From Candidatus Kaiserbacteria bacterium RIFCSPHIGHO2_01_FULL_55_37 (GTDB taxonomy: Bacteria; Patescibacteriota; Minisyncoccia; Phycocordibacterales; UBA2100): a stretch of 58,477 nucleotides of DNA. How positions within the stretch are numbered: the stretch's first letter is position 1; every line of letters starts with the position of its first letter. Below are positions 18,522 to 38,324 of this stretch, piece after piece. Made by a program: the position numbers and the translations under genes. The stretch is from assembly GCA_001781175.1 (NCBI GenBank), contig MFKY01000048.1:1-58477 (forward strand), given 5' to 3'. The notes under the pieces were generated by a model. It was given only the letters and a program-made list of their open reading frames with translations. It made no database searches and was not told where the DNA came from.

Positions 18522-20459
18522 ATGGAACCACTGCCACCATCCAACGATTCTGGACACGCCGGAGGCGCAACTCCCGGACCGCGCCGCACTCAGAGCCCCG
18601 CACGCCCGCACCACGCCCGCCCGGGGAGCCGCCCGCCATCCCGCCCCGCAGGAAGGCCGGGGACACGGACAGGCCGGCCGGCCAGACATTTCGGTCGTCC
18701 CAATCATCCGCCGCGCCGCGGAAAAACCCGCGTCGAGCACCAGGCGCCCTCCCAACGTAAACAAGCGGGCGCTCCCATTCCACCCCCCTCACCCGACACC
18801 GTGCGCATTATTCCTTTGGGCGGCGTCGAAGAGATAGGACGCAACATGACGGCCGTGGAATTCGGCGACGATATTTTCATCCTCGACTGCGGATTCGCCT
18901 TCTCCGAAGGAGAAACCCCGGGCATCGATTACATCCTGCCGAACACCGGCTACCTCGAGGAGCGCCGCGACAAGATCCGCGGTCTGCTCATCGGACACGG
19001 TCACCTCGACCACATCGGCGGCATCCCCTACATCATCGACCGCATCGGCAACCCGACCATCTACACGCGCAAACTTACGGGCATGATGATAAAGAAGCGC
19101 CAGGAAGAATTCACGCAGACATCGCCCGTGAACATCCGCGAAGTAGAGAGGGACGAAGTCATCAAGCTCGGCGCCGCGACGATACGATTTTTCGGCGTCA
19201 CGCACACAGTGCCTGATTCGATGGGCATCATCATCGAGACCCCGTGGGGCGACGTGGTGTATACCGGAGACATCAAGTTGAACCACCTCGACGGCGAGCC
19301 GTCGGCCGAGGAGAAGCGCGAATTCGGTATATTCAAGAACCGCAAAGTACTCGCCCTGCTCATGGACAGCACGAACGTCTGGCAGCCGGGATTCTCTATT
19401 CCTGAATCAACTGTCTACACCACTCTCGAAAAAATAATCAAAGATTCAAAAGGCCGGCTTGTTATCGCGATGTTCGCTTCCCACTTGGAGCGGCTCATCC
19501 GCGTCGTGCATTTTGCCGAGGAGTACGGCAAAAAAATCGTCATCGACGGACGCAGTATGCGCACCAACATCGAGATAGCGCGGGAAATAGGTATCATCAA
19601 ATACAAAGATGACACCGTCGTCGCCGTCGAGAACATGAATCAATATCCGCCGGAACGGCTCATCATCCTTGCGACAGGCGCTCAGGGAGACGAGTTCGCA
19701 TCGCTCGCCCGCATCGGCAACAAGACGCACAAATACATCCGTCTTCAGCCGACCGATACCGTCGTGCTCTCTTCGTCGGTCATTCCCGGCAACGAGCGCG
19801 CAGTGCAAAAGCTCAAAGACAACCTCTCGCGTCAGGGAGCACATATCATCACCTACCACGCCTCCGATGTGCATGCATCCGGCCACGGCAACCGCGAAGA
19901 AGCGGCATGGATACACAGCCAAATAAGGCCGAAATTCTTCATCCCCGTTCACGGGTATCACTACATGTTGCGTGTGCACGCCGACCTCGCCGTCGAAATG
20001 GGTGTCAAATCGGAGAACATTTGTATCCCCGACAACAGCTCCATCATTGAGATAAAAAATGCCGAGAAGATATTGAAGCATGCGCTCAAAGCACCTGCAG
20101 AACTGCGCGTCGTTGAAGGCACGACCGTCTCGGAACTCTCCGATGTCCTGATGCGTGACAGAAAAGCGCTCGGTCAGGAAGGCTTCTGTGTCGTCGTCGC
20201 GACGGTAGACCGTCGCACGGGCAAGCTCCACAAATCCCCCGACATCATCTCGCGCGGGTTCGTCTATCTGCGCGACAACAAAGACCTCATGGACCAGACG
20301 CGTCTCATCATCCGCAAATCAGTAGAGACGTCGCTGCGCAACCCGCGAGCCGCAGACCTCGACGCCGCAAGAGAAGACCTAGCCGACGCGGTTTCCCAAT
20401 TCCTGTTACAACGTACAATGAAAAGACCTATTGTTATCCCCGTAATAGTCAGTATCTAA
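18522..20459 (+). CDS. rnj: Ribonuclease J (beta-CASP metallo-beta-lactamase) with Arg/Pro-rich N-terminal extension
   Basis: IGHGHLDHIGGIPY, a beta-CASP region and HASGHG. About 90 aa of R/P-rich leader precede the conserved VRIIPLGG start. Confidence 0.9.
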   Translation: MEPLPPSNDSGHAGGATPGPRRTQSPARPHHARPGSRPPSRPAGRPGTRTGRPARHFGRPNHPPRRGKTRVEHQAPSQRKQAGAPIPPPSPDTVRIIPLGGVEEIGRNMTAVEFGDDIFILDCGFAFSEGETPGIDYILPNTGYLEERRDKIRGLLIGHGHLDHIGGIPYIIDRIGNPTIYTRKLTGMMIKKRQEEFTQTSPVNIREVERDEVIKLGAATIRFFGVTHTVPDSMGIIIETPWGDVVYTGDIKLNHLDGEPSAEEKREFGIFKNRKVLALLMDSTNVWQPGFSIPESTVYTTLEKIIKDSKGRLVIAMFASHLERLIRVVHFAEEYGKKIVIDGRSMRTNIEIAREIGIIKYKDDTVVAVENMNQYPPERLIILATGAQGDEFASLARIGNKTHKYIRLQPTDTVVLSSSVIPGNERAVQKLKDNLSRQGAHIITYHASDVHASGHGNREEAAWIHSQIRPKFFIPVHGYHYMLRVHADLAVEMGVKSENICIPDNSSIIEIKNAEKILKHALKAPAELRVVEGTTVSELSDVLMRDRKALGQEGFCVVVATVDRRTGKLHKSPDIISRGFVYLRDNKDLMDQTRLIIRKSVETSLRNPRAADLDAAREDLADAVSQFLLQRTMKRPIVIPVIVSI

Positions 20460-20472
20460 GCGCATCGACTTG

Positions 20473-20502
20473 CCCCGTTAGAAGCGAAGCTTTCTAATGG
20501 GG
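20473..20502 (+). repeat. Short-form CCCCG...CGGGG hairpin (family A)
   Basis: CCCCGTTAGAAGC-gaa-GCTTTCTAATGGGG forms about 13 bp with one G-U pair and one bulge. It starts 13 nt after the rnj stop. Confidence 0.75.
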
Positions 20503-20543
20503 TGAGGCGCCCTATCGTGATTCCGGTGATCGTCAGCGTTTGA
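20502..20543 (+). other. Ghost (recoded) copy of the RNase J C-terminal 13 codons plus stop
   Basis: GTG AGG CGC CCT ATC GTG ATT CCG GTG ATC GTC AGC GTT TGA = VRRPIVIPVIVSV*, in frame with rnj, which ends MKRPIVIPVIVSI*. Confidence 0.8.
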
Positions 20544-20621
20544 CATTGAACATTACATGTTATATAACGGTGTCCGGAGGCACGCCTCTGGTCAAAATTA
20601 ACTCTCACCCGGAGTTCGCAA

Positions 20622-20840
20622 ATGGATCCTTCGCAATTATCTTTGCTTACGCAAATACTGCTGCTGTTCGCTCTTGGCTCAGCGGCCTTCGCTGCATGGA
20701 GTTTGTGCGCCATAATTTGGCGCACGTCGGGCTTGATTCTCGCCAAGAAAGCGTATTGGGAACAAAAAGCTCGACACATGCAACTTACGGCCGACGCGCG
20801 CGAGAAGCAAACGTCAAGCGACGGAAAACCCAAAGGCTAA
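20622..20840 (+). CDS. Small single-pass membrane protein (72 aa), hypothetical
   Basis: GGAG lies 7 nt upstream of the ATG. The protein has a TM helix LLTQILLLFALGSAAFAAWSLCAIIW and a charged tail, and a terminator follows. Confidence 0.45.
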   Translation: MDPSQLSLLTQILLLFALGSAAFAAWSLCAIIWRTSGLILAKKAYWEQKARHMQLTADAREKQTSSDGKPKG

Positions 20841-31448: not shown

Positions 31449-32504
31449 ATGTTCCACTTACTCGAACGATATACCGTTGAGAGCGTCACGTGCGGACACC
31501 CTGACAAAGTGTGTGACCAGATGTCCGACGCGATTCTTGATGCGATGCTCGCACAGGACCCTTTTAGCCGCGCGGGAGTAGAGACCTTCGGCAGCCACGG
31601 CACGCTCATGATAGGCGGTGAAGTGAAAACAAAAGCGAAAATAGATTTCGAAAAGATAGCGCGCAAAGTGTATAAAGACATCGGATACACCGAGAAGCTT
31701 GAGGTGTTTGTGCGCGTCGCGCAGCAATCCCCTGACATCGCGATGGGAGTGGATACGGGAGGCGCAGGAGACCAAGGCATCATGTACGGCTACGCGACGA
31801 ACGAGACAAAAGAATATTTGCCGAAAGGCGTCGTACTTGCGCACGCGCTCGCGAGACGGCTCGAAAAGTTGCGCCGCGACGGCACGCTTAAATGGCTCAA
31901 GCCCGACGGCAAGACGCAGGTGACCATTTCAAAAGGCAAAGTTATCACTGCGCTTTGCTCCACGCAGCACGACAAAAAAGTCTCGCAGGAAGAGATACGT
32001 AAGCAGCTCATTAAGCACCTCTTCACGCCTATACTCGGCTCGCTCAAAAATATCGAGATACTCGTCAATCCAACGGGGCGGTTTGTGCAAGGAGGATTTG
32101 AAGCCGATGCGGGGCTCACGGGCCGCAAAATCCAAGTAGACACCTACGGTGGGCTTATGCCACACGGTGGCGGCTGTTTCTCGGGTAAGGAGCCGATGAA
32201 GGTGGACCGCTCGGCCGCATACATGTGCCGTTTTGTCGCGAAGAACCTCGTCGCAAACGGCTATGCCAAGAAAGCGCTGGTATCGGTCGCCTACGCTATC
32301 GGCCGCGCGGAGCCCGTCATGATAGAGGCGTTCGACGAGAAAGGTAAGAACCTAACCCACATCGTGACCAAGAATTTCGATTTCCGCCCGCAAGCAATCA
32401 TCGAACGGCTGGACCTGCGCCGCCCCATCTACAAAGAAACCGCCGCCTATGGCCACTTCGGAGTAGCGGGAAGACCATGGGAGAAGATTGTGAAGCTTAA
32501 GTAA
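31449..32504 (+). CDS. metK: S-adenosylmethionine synthetase (short form, 351 aa)
   Basis: ESVTCGHPDKVCDQMSDAILD...GGAGDQGIMYGYA...VDTYGG. Confidence 0.93.
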   Translation: MFHLLERYTVESVTCGHPDKVCDQMSDAILDAMLAQDPFSRAGVETFGSHGTLMIGGEVKTKAKIDFEKIARKVYKDIGYTEKLEVFVRVAQQSPDIAMGVDTGGAGDQGIMYGYATNETKEYLPKGVVLAHALARRLEKLRRDGTLKWLKPDGKTQVTISKGKVITALCSTQHDKKVSQEEIRKQLIKHLFTPILGSLKNIEILVNPTGRFVQGGFEADAGLTGRKIQVDTYGGLMPHGGGCFSGKEPMKVDRSAAYMCRFVAKNLVANGYAKKALVSVAYAIGRAEPVMIEAFDEKGKNLTHIVTKNFDFRPQAIIERLDLRRPIYKETAAYGHFGVAGRPWEKIVKLK

Positions 32505-32591
32505 ATATTGGCCGCCCGCCTTCGCGAGGCCGCAGCCTCGCTTCGACGAGGCGAAGGCCCGTGGGAGAAAATAATCAAACTGAAAAAGTAA
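32505..32591 (+). other. Hairpin spacer plus ghost (recoded) copy of the MetK C-terminal tail
   Basis: After the TAA comes the GC-rich hairpin GCGAGGC-cgca-GCCTCGC with outer GCCTTC/GAAGGC pairing. It is followed in frame by GGC CCG TGG GAG AAA ATA ATC AAA CTG AAA AAG TAA = GPWEKIIKLKK*. The real end is RPWEKIVKLK*. Confidence 0.75.
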
Positions 32592-32728
32592 GCGGCACGG
32601 GTGTTACACCGGACATCATCGCGTGATATGTTATCCCACTGTCGCTGACTTCGTAAGAATGCCCGGGCAATCAACATTGAATTGAATTTTGCGCACATAC
32701 CGACCCGACATAAGCGCGCCCTTACACA

Positions 32729-32760
32729 CATGCAACTATGACGGCCGTCACAGTTGCATG
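32729..32760. promoter_or_regulatory. 32-bp palindrome (candidate operator) overlapping the promoter of the PaaX-like gene
   Basis: CATGCAACT AT GACGGCCGTC AC AGTTGCATG. Its right arm contains TTGCAT (-35-like), and TATGAT follows at 32775-32780. Confidence 0.6.
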
Positions 32761-32789
32761 TGGTCATGATATTCTATGATAGATAACGT

Positions 32790-33365
32790 ATGGGGAAACT
32801 CGAAACGGCTGCCCGATTTGAAAGACGCAAGGGATACGTGCAAAAGGCCGTCTTAGCGAGCATCGGCATTGCGGGAATACTGCTTGTCGCGATGGCCGCG
32901 CCGAATACCCTGCAACTACTGGGAAAACTCGGCAAAGGCAAAAAGAGATTCGGCGAGGAAACCCGGTCAGCACTTTCGCGTCTTGCCTACAGAGGTCTCA
33001 TTGCCTTCGAAGAGCGCGATGGAAAGAAGTACGCCCGTATCACCGAGAAAGGTCGGCGAGCCCTTGAATTCGAAGCACAGAAAGCGGCTGTTCGCGCCAA
33101 GTGCGGAGGGCGATGGGATAAACGTTACCGAATGGTGATTTTTGATATTCCTGAGCGGAAACGCAGTATTCGCGCTTCTCTACGCCGAACCATGCGCGAA
33201 TCGGGTTTCTTGTGCATTCAAGGGAGCGTCTGGGTATACCCATATGATTGCGAGGATCTCATTGCACTTTTGAAAGCTGATCTTCACATCGGCAAAGATG
33301 TTTTGTATACCATCGTTGAAAAGATTGAGAACGATGCGTGGATCAAAAGACATTTCGACTTATAG
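32790..33365 (+). CDS. PaaX-like / Cas2-fold domain protein with N-terminal TM helix (putative regulator)
   Basis: TM helix AVLASIGIAGILLVAMAA, a winged-helix-like segment LAYRGLIAFEERDGKKYARITEKG, and a C-terminal YRMVIFDIPERKRSIRASLRRTMRESGFLCIQGSVWVYP. Confidence 0.55.
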   Translation: MGKLETAARFERRKGYVQKAVLASIGIAGILLVAMAAPNTLQLLGKLGKGKKRFGEETRSALSRLAYRGLIAFEERDGKKYARITEKGRRALEFEAQKAAVRAKCGGRWDKRYRMVIFDIPERKRSIRASLRRTMRESGFLCIQGSVWVYPYDCEDLIALLKADLHIGKDVLYTIVEKIENDAWIKRHFDL

Positions 33366-33382
33366 AAACAAATCATCAAATA

Positions 33383-33414
33383 CATACAAATCGGACGGCC
33401 GTCATATTTGTATG
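33383..33414. promoter_or_regulatory. Second 32-bp palindrome of the same design, upstream of the HAD phosphatase gene
   Basis: CATACAAAT CG GACGGCCGTC AT ATTTGTATG, followed by TATATAA. Confidence 0.6.
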
Positions 33415-33493
33415 TAGGTATATAAAGGGCTGTATGTGTTATGCGTCAGAGTAGAACTGTGCAACGAAAGTTGAAATCAGGTATCATGCGGGG

Positions 33494-37389: not shown

Positions 37390-38225
37390 TGTGGCGTCAA
37401 ACGATAGAGTATTACTTTGAGTTTCATATTGCCGATCGTATCCACGACCATTTCTTTTTCATCGGCAATCTCGATTGCATATCCGTATTTAGCTGCTTCA
37501 CCTCGAATAATATCGTGCCGTACCATTTCGCTCGCCCCTAACAATATCTCTCCTTGCGGGTTGAGATGGTCGCGTCCCTCCCGTATGAATCTTCGCAGCG
37601 CCTCATACTGCTTATCGAGTCCCGCTCGAAGTTGCATGACTTTTTCCGGTGTTATTGGCATGTCGTGCTGCTTTAGTATTTCTTCGATATCTTGATCAGG
37701 AGCATTCCATGGAAAATTCCAAAACAGGATGTCGAACTTCTCGTCCTTGCCAACTCCTGAAAACACATTGCCTTCCCGTACGCTGAAAAAGGGCTCTTTC
37801 AAGGCATATTGTTCGGCATTGGTCTTACAGTTGTCGACAGCTAGCGGCGAGATATCAGTCGCAACTACTCGGGTCGGCTCGCCGTGCTGTGCGACGTATA
37901 TCGCAGCAATTCCCGTACCTGTGCCCATATCGAGAAACGATTTTCCACGTGACTGAGCAGCAATATATGTCGGCCACGCCAATCCGATGTTGACATGTTC
38001 AGGAGAGTACACATATTTCTTGATGATGAAGTGATCAAGCCCTGGTAGGTCGACGACAATTTGTCCGCGCTCGGCGAAACGCGGGTCATTCTCCTGTCCG
38101 TCGTACATTCTTATAACGTACTCAAGAAATTGCCTTCGATTCTCATCTATCGGCGGATACTCGTAGCCATCATCGTTCGGCTTATTTTGAGGAGGATGGA
38201 ACCTCTGTAACCCATCGAGCATCAT
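37386..38225 (-). CDS. Class I SAM-dependent methyltransferase (HemK/RsmC-like, NFPW motif)
   Basis: FLDMGTGTGIAAIY (motif I), VVATDIS, and FDILFWNFPW, an NPPY-like motif IV. Start placed at MMLDG. The upstream part of the ORF overlaps the ghost tail. Confidence 0.75.
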   Translation of the reverse strand: MMLDGLQRFHPPQNKPNDDGYEYPPIDENRRQFLEYVIRMYDGQENDPRFAERGQIVVDLPGLDHFIIKKYVYSPEHVNIGLAWPTYIAAQSRGKSFLDMGTGTGIAAIYVAQHGEPTRVVATDISPLAVDNCKTNAEQYALKEPFFSVREGNVFSGVGKDEKFDILFWNFPWNAPDQDIEEILKQHDMPITPEKVMQLRAGLDKQYEALRRFIREGRDHLNPQGEILLGASEMVRHDIIRGEAAKYGYAIEIADEKEMVVDTIGNMKLKVILYRLTPQ

Positions 38226-38227
38226 AG

Positions 38228-38324
38228 CTACGCGTCCGGGTAGGCATCCTTTATCTCTTTTGCGAGGTATGGATTCCACCCCGCAGTGAAGCAAAGCTTA
38301 CTACGGGGCAGGCATGGCACCCGT
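38228..38324 (-). other. Short-form family-B hairpin plus ghost (recoded) copy of the DHOD-like C-terminal 16 codons
   Basis: Read on the minus strand: TAA, 16 nt, CCCCGTAGTAAGC-ttt-GCTTCACTGCGGGG, then TGG AAT CCA TAC CTC GCA AAA GAG ATA AAG GAT GCC TAC CCG GAC GCG TAG = WNPYLAKEIKDAYPDA*. The ghost stop is 2 nt from the methyltransferase ATG. Confidence 0.8.

Follow-up and report, generated by a model that had tools for sequence, protein, structure and literature searches.

The subject of this analysis is the 3' end of rnj, the gene for RNase J, in a 58,477-nt stretch (55% G+C) of a Candidatus Kaiserbacteria genome (Parcubacteria/Paceibacterota, candidate phyla radiation, CPR). The whole stretch is referred to as the window. 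Comparison contigs are labelled with L-numbers (L001, L118 and so on), and L005-L084 are 80 species-level rnj relatives. The nearest relatives of this RNase J come from Kaiserbacteria metagenome-assembled genomes, and an identical protein, on which the Pfam families Lactamase_B, RNase_J_b_CASP and RNase_J_C were matched, is on record from Rifle-type groundwater samples. The 645-aa protein ends in MKRPIVIPVIVSI*, encoded at 20418-20459 as ATG AAA AGA CCT ATT GTT ATC CCC GTA ATA GTC AGT ATC TAA. After a 42-nt spacer (20460-20501) the tail occurs a second time, at 20502-20543, as GTG AGG CGC CCT ATC GTG ATT CCG GTG ATC GTC AGC GTT TGA. The two copies differ at 15/42 nt (3/2/10 at codon positions 1/2/3), and 10/13 residues are identical. 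In other words, the second, untranslated copy, called the ghost below, spells nearly the same peptide in other codons. A first-pass annotation of the sequence had pointed out this recurrence, and a recount agrees with its figures.

The same layout is found at two other gene ends. When each open reading frame (ORF) of the window was scanned for a second copy of its tail further downstream, 3 cases only were obtained, namely rnj, metK and a DHOD-like gene (PF01180, DHO_dh), which are exactly the three that had been listed before. At metK, 8/10 of the differences between the translated tail and the ghost fall at third positions. At the DHOD-like gene, 12/13 do so, and 16/16 residues are identical. 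The longest identical run between the copies is 5 nt at rnj and 8 nt at metK. The distance from the new stop to the right-hand piece of the ghost is 42, 46 and 51 nt in the three cases, and no ORF lies between. When the same number of sites was mutated at random in 100,000 trials and residue identity was scored, the observed identity was reached 5 times for rnj, 5 times for metK and 0 times for the DHOD-like gene.

The arrangement is real. The rnj region recurs without a single change in L001-L004 and L219, as does the DHOD-like region in L222-L226. These 10 further assemblies come from differing samples and at least 2 assembly pipelines. Their identity, together with analogous structures in other species, rules out a chimera of co-existing strains, which the first-pass annotation had raised as a concern.

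What lies between the two rnj copies became apparent from an alignment with the rnj 3' ends of relatives, a check that had been proposed with the original observation. Directly behind the new stop lies a stub, GCGCATCGA, that corresponds to the left piece of the relatives' native tail. It reads ..cag CGC ACG A.., that is, ..Q R T plus the A of an ATG, with one T inserted at 20465. A palindromic element of 34 nt follows (hairpin fold -16 kcal/mol, z = -3.4), which separates the A of the native Met codon from its TG; there is no target-site duplication. The rest of the native tail comes after the element. The stub and 20503-20543, when rejoined, read RTMRRPIVIPVIVSV*. The apparent GTG of the ghost consists of the last G of the element and the TG of the native ATG. 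Because this GTG arises at the element/native-ATG junction, the M/V difference between the copies is an artefact. The ghost is thus the original native tail of rnj, split by the 34-nt element.

This anatomy revises several earlier statements. The spacer had been described as essentially one hairpin; instead, it holds 9 nt of native tail and the 34-nt element. The new tail, TAA and hairpin had been taken to stand before an intact native tail; instead, 6-12 nt of native tail precede the hairpin, which thus interrupts that tail. Finally, meaning had been attached to the ghost being in frame. The frame is accidental, since the ghost of the DHOD-like gene is shifted against its new stop (offset +1) and the ghost-associated elements are 34-37 nt long (41 nt in a probable case, L163).

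Table 1. Dissection of the three duplicated gene ends in the window.
Feature	Position	Strand	Basis or remark
rnj (RNase J) coding sequence, ending in the replacement tail	18522..20459	+	ORF and translation
rnj replacement (xenologous) tail LQRTMKRPIVIPVIVSI + TAA, a patch of low G+C at third codon positions (GC3)	20406..20459	+	GC3; codon alignment with relatives
rnj stub GCGCATCGA, left piece of displaced native tail	20460..20468	+	match to relatives' native CAGCGCACGATG
rnj 34-nt palindromic element CTTG-CCCCGTTAGAAGC-GAA-GCTTTCTAATGGGG	20469..20502	+	fold; same family elsewhere
rnj right piece of displaced native tail, untranslated (TG, then AGG to TGA of the second copy)	20503..20543	+	GC3 0.71, like gene body
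metK coding sequence	31449-32504	+	ghost extends to 32591
metK replacement tail GRPWEKIVKLK + TAA	32469..32504	+	11 sites differ from relative's tail
metK displaced native tail	32505..32591	+	stub + rest 33/33 identical to L210/L213 functional tail
metK, 5 extra nt	32505-32509	+	
metK stub GGCCGCCCG	32510-32518	+	
metK, different 39-nt palindrome CCTTCGC..GCGAAGG	32519-32557	+	
metK CCCG, either 4-nt duplication or part of the element	32558-32561	+	
metK rest of native tail TGGGAG..AAGTAA	32562-32591	+	
DHOD-like coding sequence, PF01180 DHO_dh	39401-38325	-	ghost extends to 38228
DHOD-like replacement tail WNPYLAKEIKDAYPDA + TAA	38325..38375	-	sequence, simulation
DHOD-like displaced native tail	38228..38324	-	rejoined reads TGAMWNPYLAKEIKDAYPDA*
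DHOD-like stub ACGGGTGCCATG	38324-38313	-	
DHOD-like 34-nt element CCTG-CCCCGTAGTAAGC-TTTG-CTTCACTGCGGGG	38312-38279	-	fold -23.8 kcal/mol, z = -3.3
DHOD-like rest of native tail TGGAAT..GCGTAG	38278-38228	-	

Native and incoming copies of the gene ends

Which of the two copies is the newcomer? Direct evidence comes from metK. The relatives L210 and L213 are 89.5% identical to the window over this gene, and their functional tail reads GGC CGC CCG TGG GAG AAA ATA ATC AAA CTG AAA. The rejoined metK ghost of the window (GRPWEKIIKLKK*) is identical to it, and all the changes lie in the translated tail. Likewise, the functional tails of relatives resemble the ghost more, on average, than the translated tail in 5/5 filled rnj loci. 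Both results bear out the earlier proposal of a native ghost and a translated copy that came in later. The metK polarity and the third-position bias also agree with its view that the ghost is not a decaying duplicate, both copies having diverged as coding sequence. The polarity is marginal at the DHOD-like gene: the tail of the closest species shares 41/51 nt with the ghost and 38/51 with its translated counterpart, and L214 is uninformative on this point.

Composition points the same way at rnj. GC3 is 0.29-0.36 in the translated tail and 0.71 in the ghost, and the gene has a median of 0.71 and an overall value of 0.70. The low-GC3 patch begins 1-2 codons upstream of the stub's left edge. Its own left edge is approximate (20403-20409), and the aligned relatives put its start at CTG/TTA.

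Where did the incoming tail come from? Across 2,856 pairs of the 80 rnj relatives, nucleotide identity over the last 13 codons averages ~0.74 and is uncorrelated with gene-body identity (r = 0.03), which makes it impossible to trace a donor by nearest neighbours. The identity between replacement tail and ghost, 0.65-0.75, equals the mean tail identity of any two of these 80 Kaiserbacteria species. Since it is what two random family members show, the donor need only be another Kaiserbacterium, and no distant A/T-rich donor is needed.

Several further observations were made around the three genes. The N-terminal ~95 residues of RNase J (18522-18810) are an extension rich in Pro/Arg/Gly that precedes the metallo-beta-lactamase domain. 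The NCBI gene calls at this locus start later (537-547 aa), and the true RNase J start is uncertain. At the end of the rnj ghost (20536-20564), a TTGACA that overlaps the ghost's TGA and a TATAAC 17 nt further on precede a membrane-like ORF of 72 aa (20622-20840); a promoter tool makes no call for a sigma-70-type promoter here, the final T of the second hexamer being missing. At the DHOD-like gene, a methyltransferase gene starts 2 nt past the ghost's TAG (38225-38230, minus strand), and in relatives the downstream gene starts 0-6 nt past the stop (L220/L221, 2277-2283). The displaced native tail may still supply the translation start region of the gene that follows; this would favour keeping it. 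Behind the metK ghost, ~900 nt (32592-33492) are absent from the metK relative L211, in which a HAD gene follows metK after 78 nt. Within it, an ORF of 191 aa (32790-33365) encodes a PaaX central Cas2-like domain (PF20803, E = 2e-18), and similar 36-bp palindromes stand on either side of the ORF (32727-32762 and 33381-33416; centre GACGGCCGTC). The stretch may be a small inserted module.

The palindromic element and its association with ghosts

The element at rnj belongs to a family defined by the outer stem CCCCGTTAGA/TCTAAYGGGG with CYTG at its 5' side and a hypervariable inner stem and loop. Copies are about 30-45 nt long, and the entire element is an imperfect palindrome with terminal inverted repeats. 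The insertion point lies between a purine and a T, and no target-site duplication is formed. When public metagenome contigs were scanned with this pattern, at least 120 of them matched, the chance expectation being estimated at about one match or fewer, and one copy lay on a viral contig (L089). Among the matches listed, to which the counts in the rest of this paragraph also refer, 107 distinct inner stems and loops occur in 110 copies, and the inner bases are nevertheless paired at 0.52 vs 0.28 after shuffling (p = 5e-19). Read-through ORFs contain 59/117 copies, and under a stringent definition the length of in-ORF copies is a multiple of 3 in 30/41 (p = 3e-7).

An AAA-ATPase gene provides an example of such an in-frame copy, a clean 33-nt insertion that reads CPVRNGISNG, and translated peptides of the form CPVR..SNG recur. 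Tandem and nested arrays occur, with single arms nearby. Removal of the element (CYTG..GGGG) restores the native sequence exactly at rnj (5 loci), the DHOD-like gene, sigma, ychF and the AAA ATPase. The CYTG-CCCCG hairpin is therefore a widespread palindromic mobile-element family. Rfam gave chance-level matches only (E > 1; 20300-20700), and a literature search found no description of the element or of the tail swap. The element is apparently an undescribed, very abundant palindrome of groundwater CPR bacteria. Two observations concern individual copies. In L100, the copies at 4766-4801 and 6896-6931 have like outer stems and flanks, and their inner loops are mutual reverse complements (AAAAATGGGGTTT, AAACCCCACTTTT), a flip/flop-like inversion reminiscent of hairpin-mediated replication. 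In an AAA-ATPase/CDC48-like gene of L128 and L195, an in-frame element stands at the same place, with extra partial copies in L195; this is a recurrent or inherited coding insertion.

The phenomenon is recurrent, as had been suspected, and extends to other species. Four further rnj genes with a tail ghost were found among the 80 relatives (L006, L045, L062 and L075), and because their ghost lengths differ, the events are independent. The element family occurs at the rnj of L006, L045 and L075, with a stem variant at that of L062. In the aligned DNA the ghost hairpins share the base CCTG-CCCCG…CGGGG followed by T, and the native tail continues to the left of the hairpin. The junctions read GCGCATCGA^[hairpin]^TGAGGCGCC… in the window, GTGATTCCGG^[hairpin]^TGATTGTGAGTGTCTAG in L006 and GCCCGA^[hairpin]^TCGTCATCC… in L045; the DHOD-like gene has ACGGGTGCCATG^[hairpin]^TGGAATCC…. 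Microhomology is present at some junctions, for example GTGA in L075. Beyond the window, cassettes were found at rnj (three sites), sigma-70 and ychF.

Altogether, 8 clear cases and 1 probable case (L163) combine a ghost with this hairpin family, and in these cases removal of the element rejoins the native tail exactly. They are strikingly regular. The foreign tail ends 0-5 nt past its own stop. The native stub between new stop and element measures 6-12 nt in 9/9 cases (mode 9-10), and the CYTG side faces the new stop in 9/9, whereas in-gene copies favour the opposite orientation (11:30 among the matches listed). Unlike in-ORF copies, the ghost copies break the frame in 8/9 (Fisher p = 0.001). 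Among the matches listed, the copies nearest to the rnj element are those of L106 and L157, and the hairpins of rnj (window), ychF (L157) and sigma (L118/L123) are mutually closest, sharing a GCGAA loop and a TAATGGGG arm.

Evidence for movement between species comes from the primary sigma factor gene, in which one insertion site (CAG A^TC GAA) is occupied by the same cassette in both L118 and L123. The gene bodies match at 40-54/63 nt per alignment window, and 50% of the same-residue codons differ. The ghosts match at 53/63 and are host-like, every difference being synonymous. The replacement tails, however, match at 59/63 and the hairpins at 31/33, and the stubs are identical. In other words, replacement tail and hairpin are ~94% identical in genes that are ~20% diverged, and the tract of low divergence begins at the codon that matches the stub's left edge. 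Therefore, replacement tail, stub and hairpin are younger than the split of the hosts, and each ghost is its own host's native tail. In this pair, the three pieces move between species as one unit, which is the mark of an element that spreads horizontally.

L118 is, in addition, a layered record of two successive 3'-end replacements. Three sigma-70 tails stand in series at 1044-3560, a GC-rich functional one, an AT-rich displaced one and the hairpin-split native one. The outer layer looks like a larger foreign segment that recombined in through one homologous and one illegitimate junction. Between the functional and the displaced AT-rich tail lies a 330-aa gene on the opposite strand. It matched no Pfam or PHROG family, and its homologue in L217 is an ordinary convergent neighbour of the sigma gene; on these two grounds an autonomous tail-replacing element was ruled out.

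Recoded tail ghosts are a broader phenomenon in these genomes, of which the CYTG-CCCCG hairpin cassettes are the most regular form. In L030 (minus strand), the ghost of a HAD hydrolase gene is preceded by a palindrome of another kind, a perfect one (TCATGTCAAGG-TGTCA-CCTTGACATGA), and there is almost no stub. The GAPDH gene of L124 (~2830-3010, plus strand) ends in …YDNEWGYSCRLAEFCEFVGEKM, and after 36 nt a recoded 22-residue ghost, …YDNEWGYSCRLAEFAEFVGKKL, follows with no clear hairpin; an odd CTG between its TGG and TAC could be the footprint of a lost element. The MetK tails of L085 and L088 (2470-2500) contain a 27-nt GC-rich hairpin, e.g. CCCGCCTGCGCGCGGCGCGCGGGCAGG, in frame before a T, which is translated as PPARGARAG and PPPDGSRAG, respectively. 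This is the tolerated in-frame counterpart of the frame-breaking insertions with replacement tails. In L105 and L164, a gene end recurs 60-90 nt downstream as an exact 18-24-nt DNA repeat (ACCTGCGTATTTGATTGA; TACCTGTNTACCGACAGGTAGAT). Since these copies are identical and not recoded, they represent a different phenomenon, possibly att-like or duplication repeats.

A probable tail-swap cassette and its alternatives

How does a gene come to have its own split end behind a foreign one? The region is probably a tail-swap cassette, that is, a native tail split by the element and standing behind an in-frame xenologous tail with its own stop. A palindromic element sits within the last 14 codons of the original rnj, whose frame it breaks, and a xenologous tail from the same bacterial family, with the same residues in other codons, is fused in frame upstream. 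Because this tail carries its own stop, RNase J is finished on it, and the split native tail stays untranslated. The net effect on the protein being nil, the element would be a selfish or neutral passenger, able to live in an essential gene without splicing.

To reach new hosts, the cassette may recombine into the corresponding conserved gene end, possibly after a break near the insertion site. The donor gene body would pair with the recipient body and the donor ghost with the recipient's native tail, and everything between would be copied in. Two-arm recombination of this kind would explain the host-level divergence of the ghosts, the joint travel of tail and hairpin, and a recoded tract that starts near the stub edge. 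At first formation, a break or template switch ~10 nt 5' of the new hairpin would have captured a homologous foreign tail. Two routes may be imagined, both speculative. A hairpin-recognising enzyme could cut 10-14 nt 5' of the foot, with the break capturing a tail from imported DNA, or folding of the freshly copied palindrome ~9 nt behind the polymerase could trigger the template switch. It is conceivable, although we would sooner bet against it, that these are gene-specific, non-autonomous homing cassettes, each made of 10-25 synonymous codons, a stop, ~9 nt of target and the palindrome, which copy themselves into the same gene ends and are formed by a palindrome-mobilising enzyme that cuts at a fixed distance from the hairpin.

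The alternative that fares best separates the cassette into two independent events: homology-facilitated illegitimate recombination (HFIR) with a related species' DNA inserted a foreign tail, the native one becoming a ghost, and a palindromic element, of a kind prone to lie shortly behind stop codons, later landed in this neutral ghost. Ghosts with another palindrome or none (window metK, L030 and L124) are in its favour, and so is the foreign segment of L118 (sigma 3' end plus neighbour gene), which displaced an earlier tail at a junction without a hairpin. Also, among the matches listed, ~14% of element copies lie 6-15 nt from the end of a long ORF on one side vs ~2% of random positions, and the lengths of the ghost-borne copies appear unconstrained (1/9 multiples of 3), as in non-coding DNA. 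However, the window holds only 2 copies of the family, and both lie within ghosts even though ghosts make up ~100 nt of 58 kb. The uniform stub also contrasts with stop-proximal copies that have no ghost, which are spread over 0-19 nt from the ORF end, and the uniform orientation also speaks against this alternative. Furthermore, tail and hairpin in L118 and L123 are recent by the measure of the host and were transferred together. Two separate events are unlikely, though not negligibly so.

A second alternative starts from an integrase-type element that carried an alternative 3' end in its attP. Its interior would have been deleted, so that attL (new tail) now abuts attR (native tail), and the hairpin would be a leftover recombinase site. 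The logic is that of e14, with a synonymous replacement 3' end and a displaced C-terminal pseudogene (PMC13626634), and the inverted arms of the hairpin resemble a simple recombinase site. Against such a scar, the spacers of 42-51 nt contain neither an integrase nor any other gene, and the junctions have no identical core, the shared runs being as short as given above for rnj and metK. The hairpin sits inside the native tail and not at its edge, and the family is found at many unrelated places, also in frame within genes. The window has no distant ghosts, and the replacement tails that were tested, those of rnj and the DHOD-like gene, were not found on viral contigs. Finally, nine independent deletions would need to have ended at the same few nucleotides. 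The scar is thus quite improbable. The first-pass annotation had named miniature elements with a replacement tail and attL/attR-like ends, as well as HFIR. Both mechanisms remain live; the att-like part falls for want of a core.

A local tandem duplication of the gene end, with later divergence of both copies, can hardly be right in spite of the tandem layout and the junction microhomology (GTGA, L075), because an untranslated copy cannot stay synonymous (third-position differences 10/15, 12/13 and 8/10) and the metK ghost is unchanged (33/33) from a relative's functional tail, all differences lying in the translated copy. Equally far from credible is an artefact or a recoding signal (assembly chimera, readthrough or bypass site, diversity-generating retroelement): the data are metagenomic, the 42-nt spacer of rnj has no in-frame stop, and a hairpin follows the stop codon, but, apart from the 10 identical assemblies and the analogous structures elsewhere, the offset of the DHOD-like ghost and the element lengths rule out programmed readthrough or bypass, the element has a native-frame stop in L006, L075 and the DHOD-like gene, and the mismatches, which carry all four bases in both copies and are not confined to the adenines of either, rule out a retroelement, as do repeats 42 nt apart with no reverse transcriptase between them.

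Several points weigh against the tail-swap cassette. Unit transfer was seen for one pair only, at sigma and not at rnj, and the ghosts behind other palindromes or none indicate that the hairpin family is not strictly required. Composition is weak evidence, since low-GC3 rnj tails also occur in relatives without a ghost (L017, L059, L028 and L044), which weakens GC3 as proof of foreign origin; these tails could be relics of earlier replacements whose ghosts have since been deleted. L007, also without a ghost, has a tail that resembles the window's rnj replacement tail. No empty site from the same species was found for rnj, metK or the DHOD-like gene; the rnj and DHOD-like population is clonal. 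A hairpin that breaks the frame of an essential tail should kill the cell unless it is rescued, and the account therefore requires either near-simultaneous rescue or a tolerated truncation. None of the schemes tried for first formation (staggered-cut transposition with duplication, Campbell circle integration at several cores, simple HFIR in which the donor has a hairpin behind its stop) yields a gene body followed in turn by new tail, stop, native stub, hairpin and the remaining native tail. No protein family recurs beside the ~120 element copies, as far as these contigs, which are not whole genomes, extend, and no genome-wide search was made. The idea that recoding protects against re-insertion is contradicted by the DHOD-like replacement tail, which keeps 14 identical nt across the insertion point, the very 14 nt that the element interrupts in the ghost.

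Comparison with known systems

Two simple identities of the hairpin were rejected. A scan of 20380-20700 found no intrinsic terminator, as the hairpin has no T tract and is followed by TGAGGCGCC; a true intrinsic terminator follows rnj in L067. An integron attC site has the reverse arm polarity (GTTAGA 5' and TCTAAC 3' in the element, on both strands) and measures 57-141 bp vs 30-45 nt. By the criteria for miniature inverted-repeat transposable elements, terminal inverted repeats are present, but a target-site duplication is absent, save for a possible 4-nt CCCG at the metK palindrome.

Repetitive extragenic palindromes (REPs), with their associated tyrosine transposases (RAYTs), and elements derived from IS200/IS605 are small hairpins that insert without a target-site duplication and with a strand or orientation bias. 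IS200/IS605 TnpA and the RAYTs recognise hairpins that form in single-stranded DNA and cleave at a set distance from the hairpin foot, which would naturally account for the constant 6-12-nt stub. Unlike in the REP/RAYT system, the foot here is CYTG-CCCCG, with no GTAG/GGAG, and a Y1/HUH gene was not found near the copies in these incomplete genomes. The inner stems also differ among copies, and REP families are not known to be coupled to gene-end duplication.

HFIR reportedly occurs in transformable bacteria, as de Vries and Wackernagel and Prudhomme and co-workers are said to have described in 2002. It resembles the present case in having one homologous in-register junction and one illegitimate junction, a foreign insert, and recipient DNA that is duplicated or deleted (compare L118). 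However, it does not predict a foreign end 0-5 nt past the stop, a palindrome at a fixed distance or repeated transfer of a unit. In the bypass cassette of phage T4 gene 60, the ribosome reportedly hops over a gap and a homing endonuclease gene drives mobility (said to be the work of Bonocora and co-workers, 2011). There, too, a mobile cassette sets a stop and a hairpin inside a coding sequence and the protein stays intact. In the present case, however, the protein is completed before the hairpin, and bypass is neither needed nor possible, as the frames differ.

For the hairpin itself, the nearest known counterparts are the Rickettsia palindromic elements (RPEs) and other intragenic miniature elements. 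RPEs are short palindromic repeats in protein genes that persist when in frame (PMC10969869). Like them, the element is inserted in frame in ORFs and read through, at the frequencies given above. Unlike RPEs, which measure ~100-150 bp and for which no replacement gene end is reported, it is 30-45 nt long, has a hypervariable inner stem and makes no target-site duplication. The ghost copies of the window also depart from the RPE-like in-ORF copies in being frame-breaking and untranslated.

In function, the closest analogue is the integration of e14 and phage 21 in E. coli icd. These elements supply the 3' end of the gene, the native end persists as the pseudogene icdC, and the differences are mostly synonymous (PMC13626634, with Hill et al. 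1989 cited there). The present case is alike in that an element interrupts the 3' end of an essential or housekeeping gene and brings its own copy, the protein stays nearly unchanged, and the native end survives downstream. As at icd, the replacement end differs mainly at synonymous sites from a native end that persists as a pseudogene (10/15, 12/13 and 8/10). However, e14 is a 15-kb prophage with an integrase and a site-specific att; here the copies lie 42-51 nt apart, with no gene and no core, and the native tail is split by a palindrome. By analogy, the rnj cassette may be regarded as an e14-like tail replacement at miniature scale around an RPE-like palindrome.

Such structures matter in practice. 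Each ghost keeps the allele from before the transfer beside the incoming one and is thus a countable marker of gene-fragment exchange among the species of an uncultivated lineage with ultra-small genomes. At gene ends, ghosts can also lead gene callers astray, as well as dN/dS scans and the calling of variants at strain level. The known ways for selfish DNA to live in essential genes are splicing, as in introns and inteins, insertion in frame, as in RPEs, and an integrase element with a spare gene end, as in e14. If the reading as a tail-swap cassette is true, it would be a fourth and minimal solution, with fewer than 100 nt and without a gene of its own.

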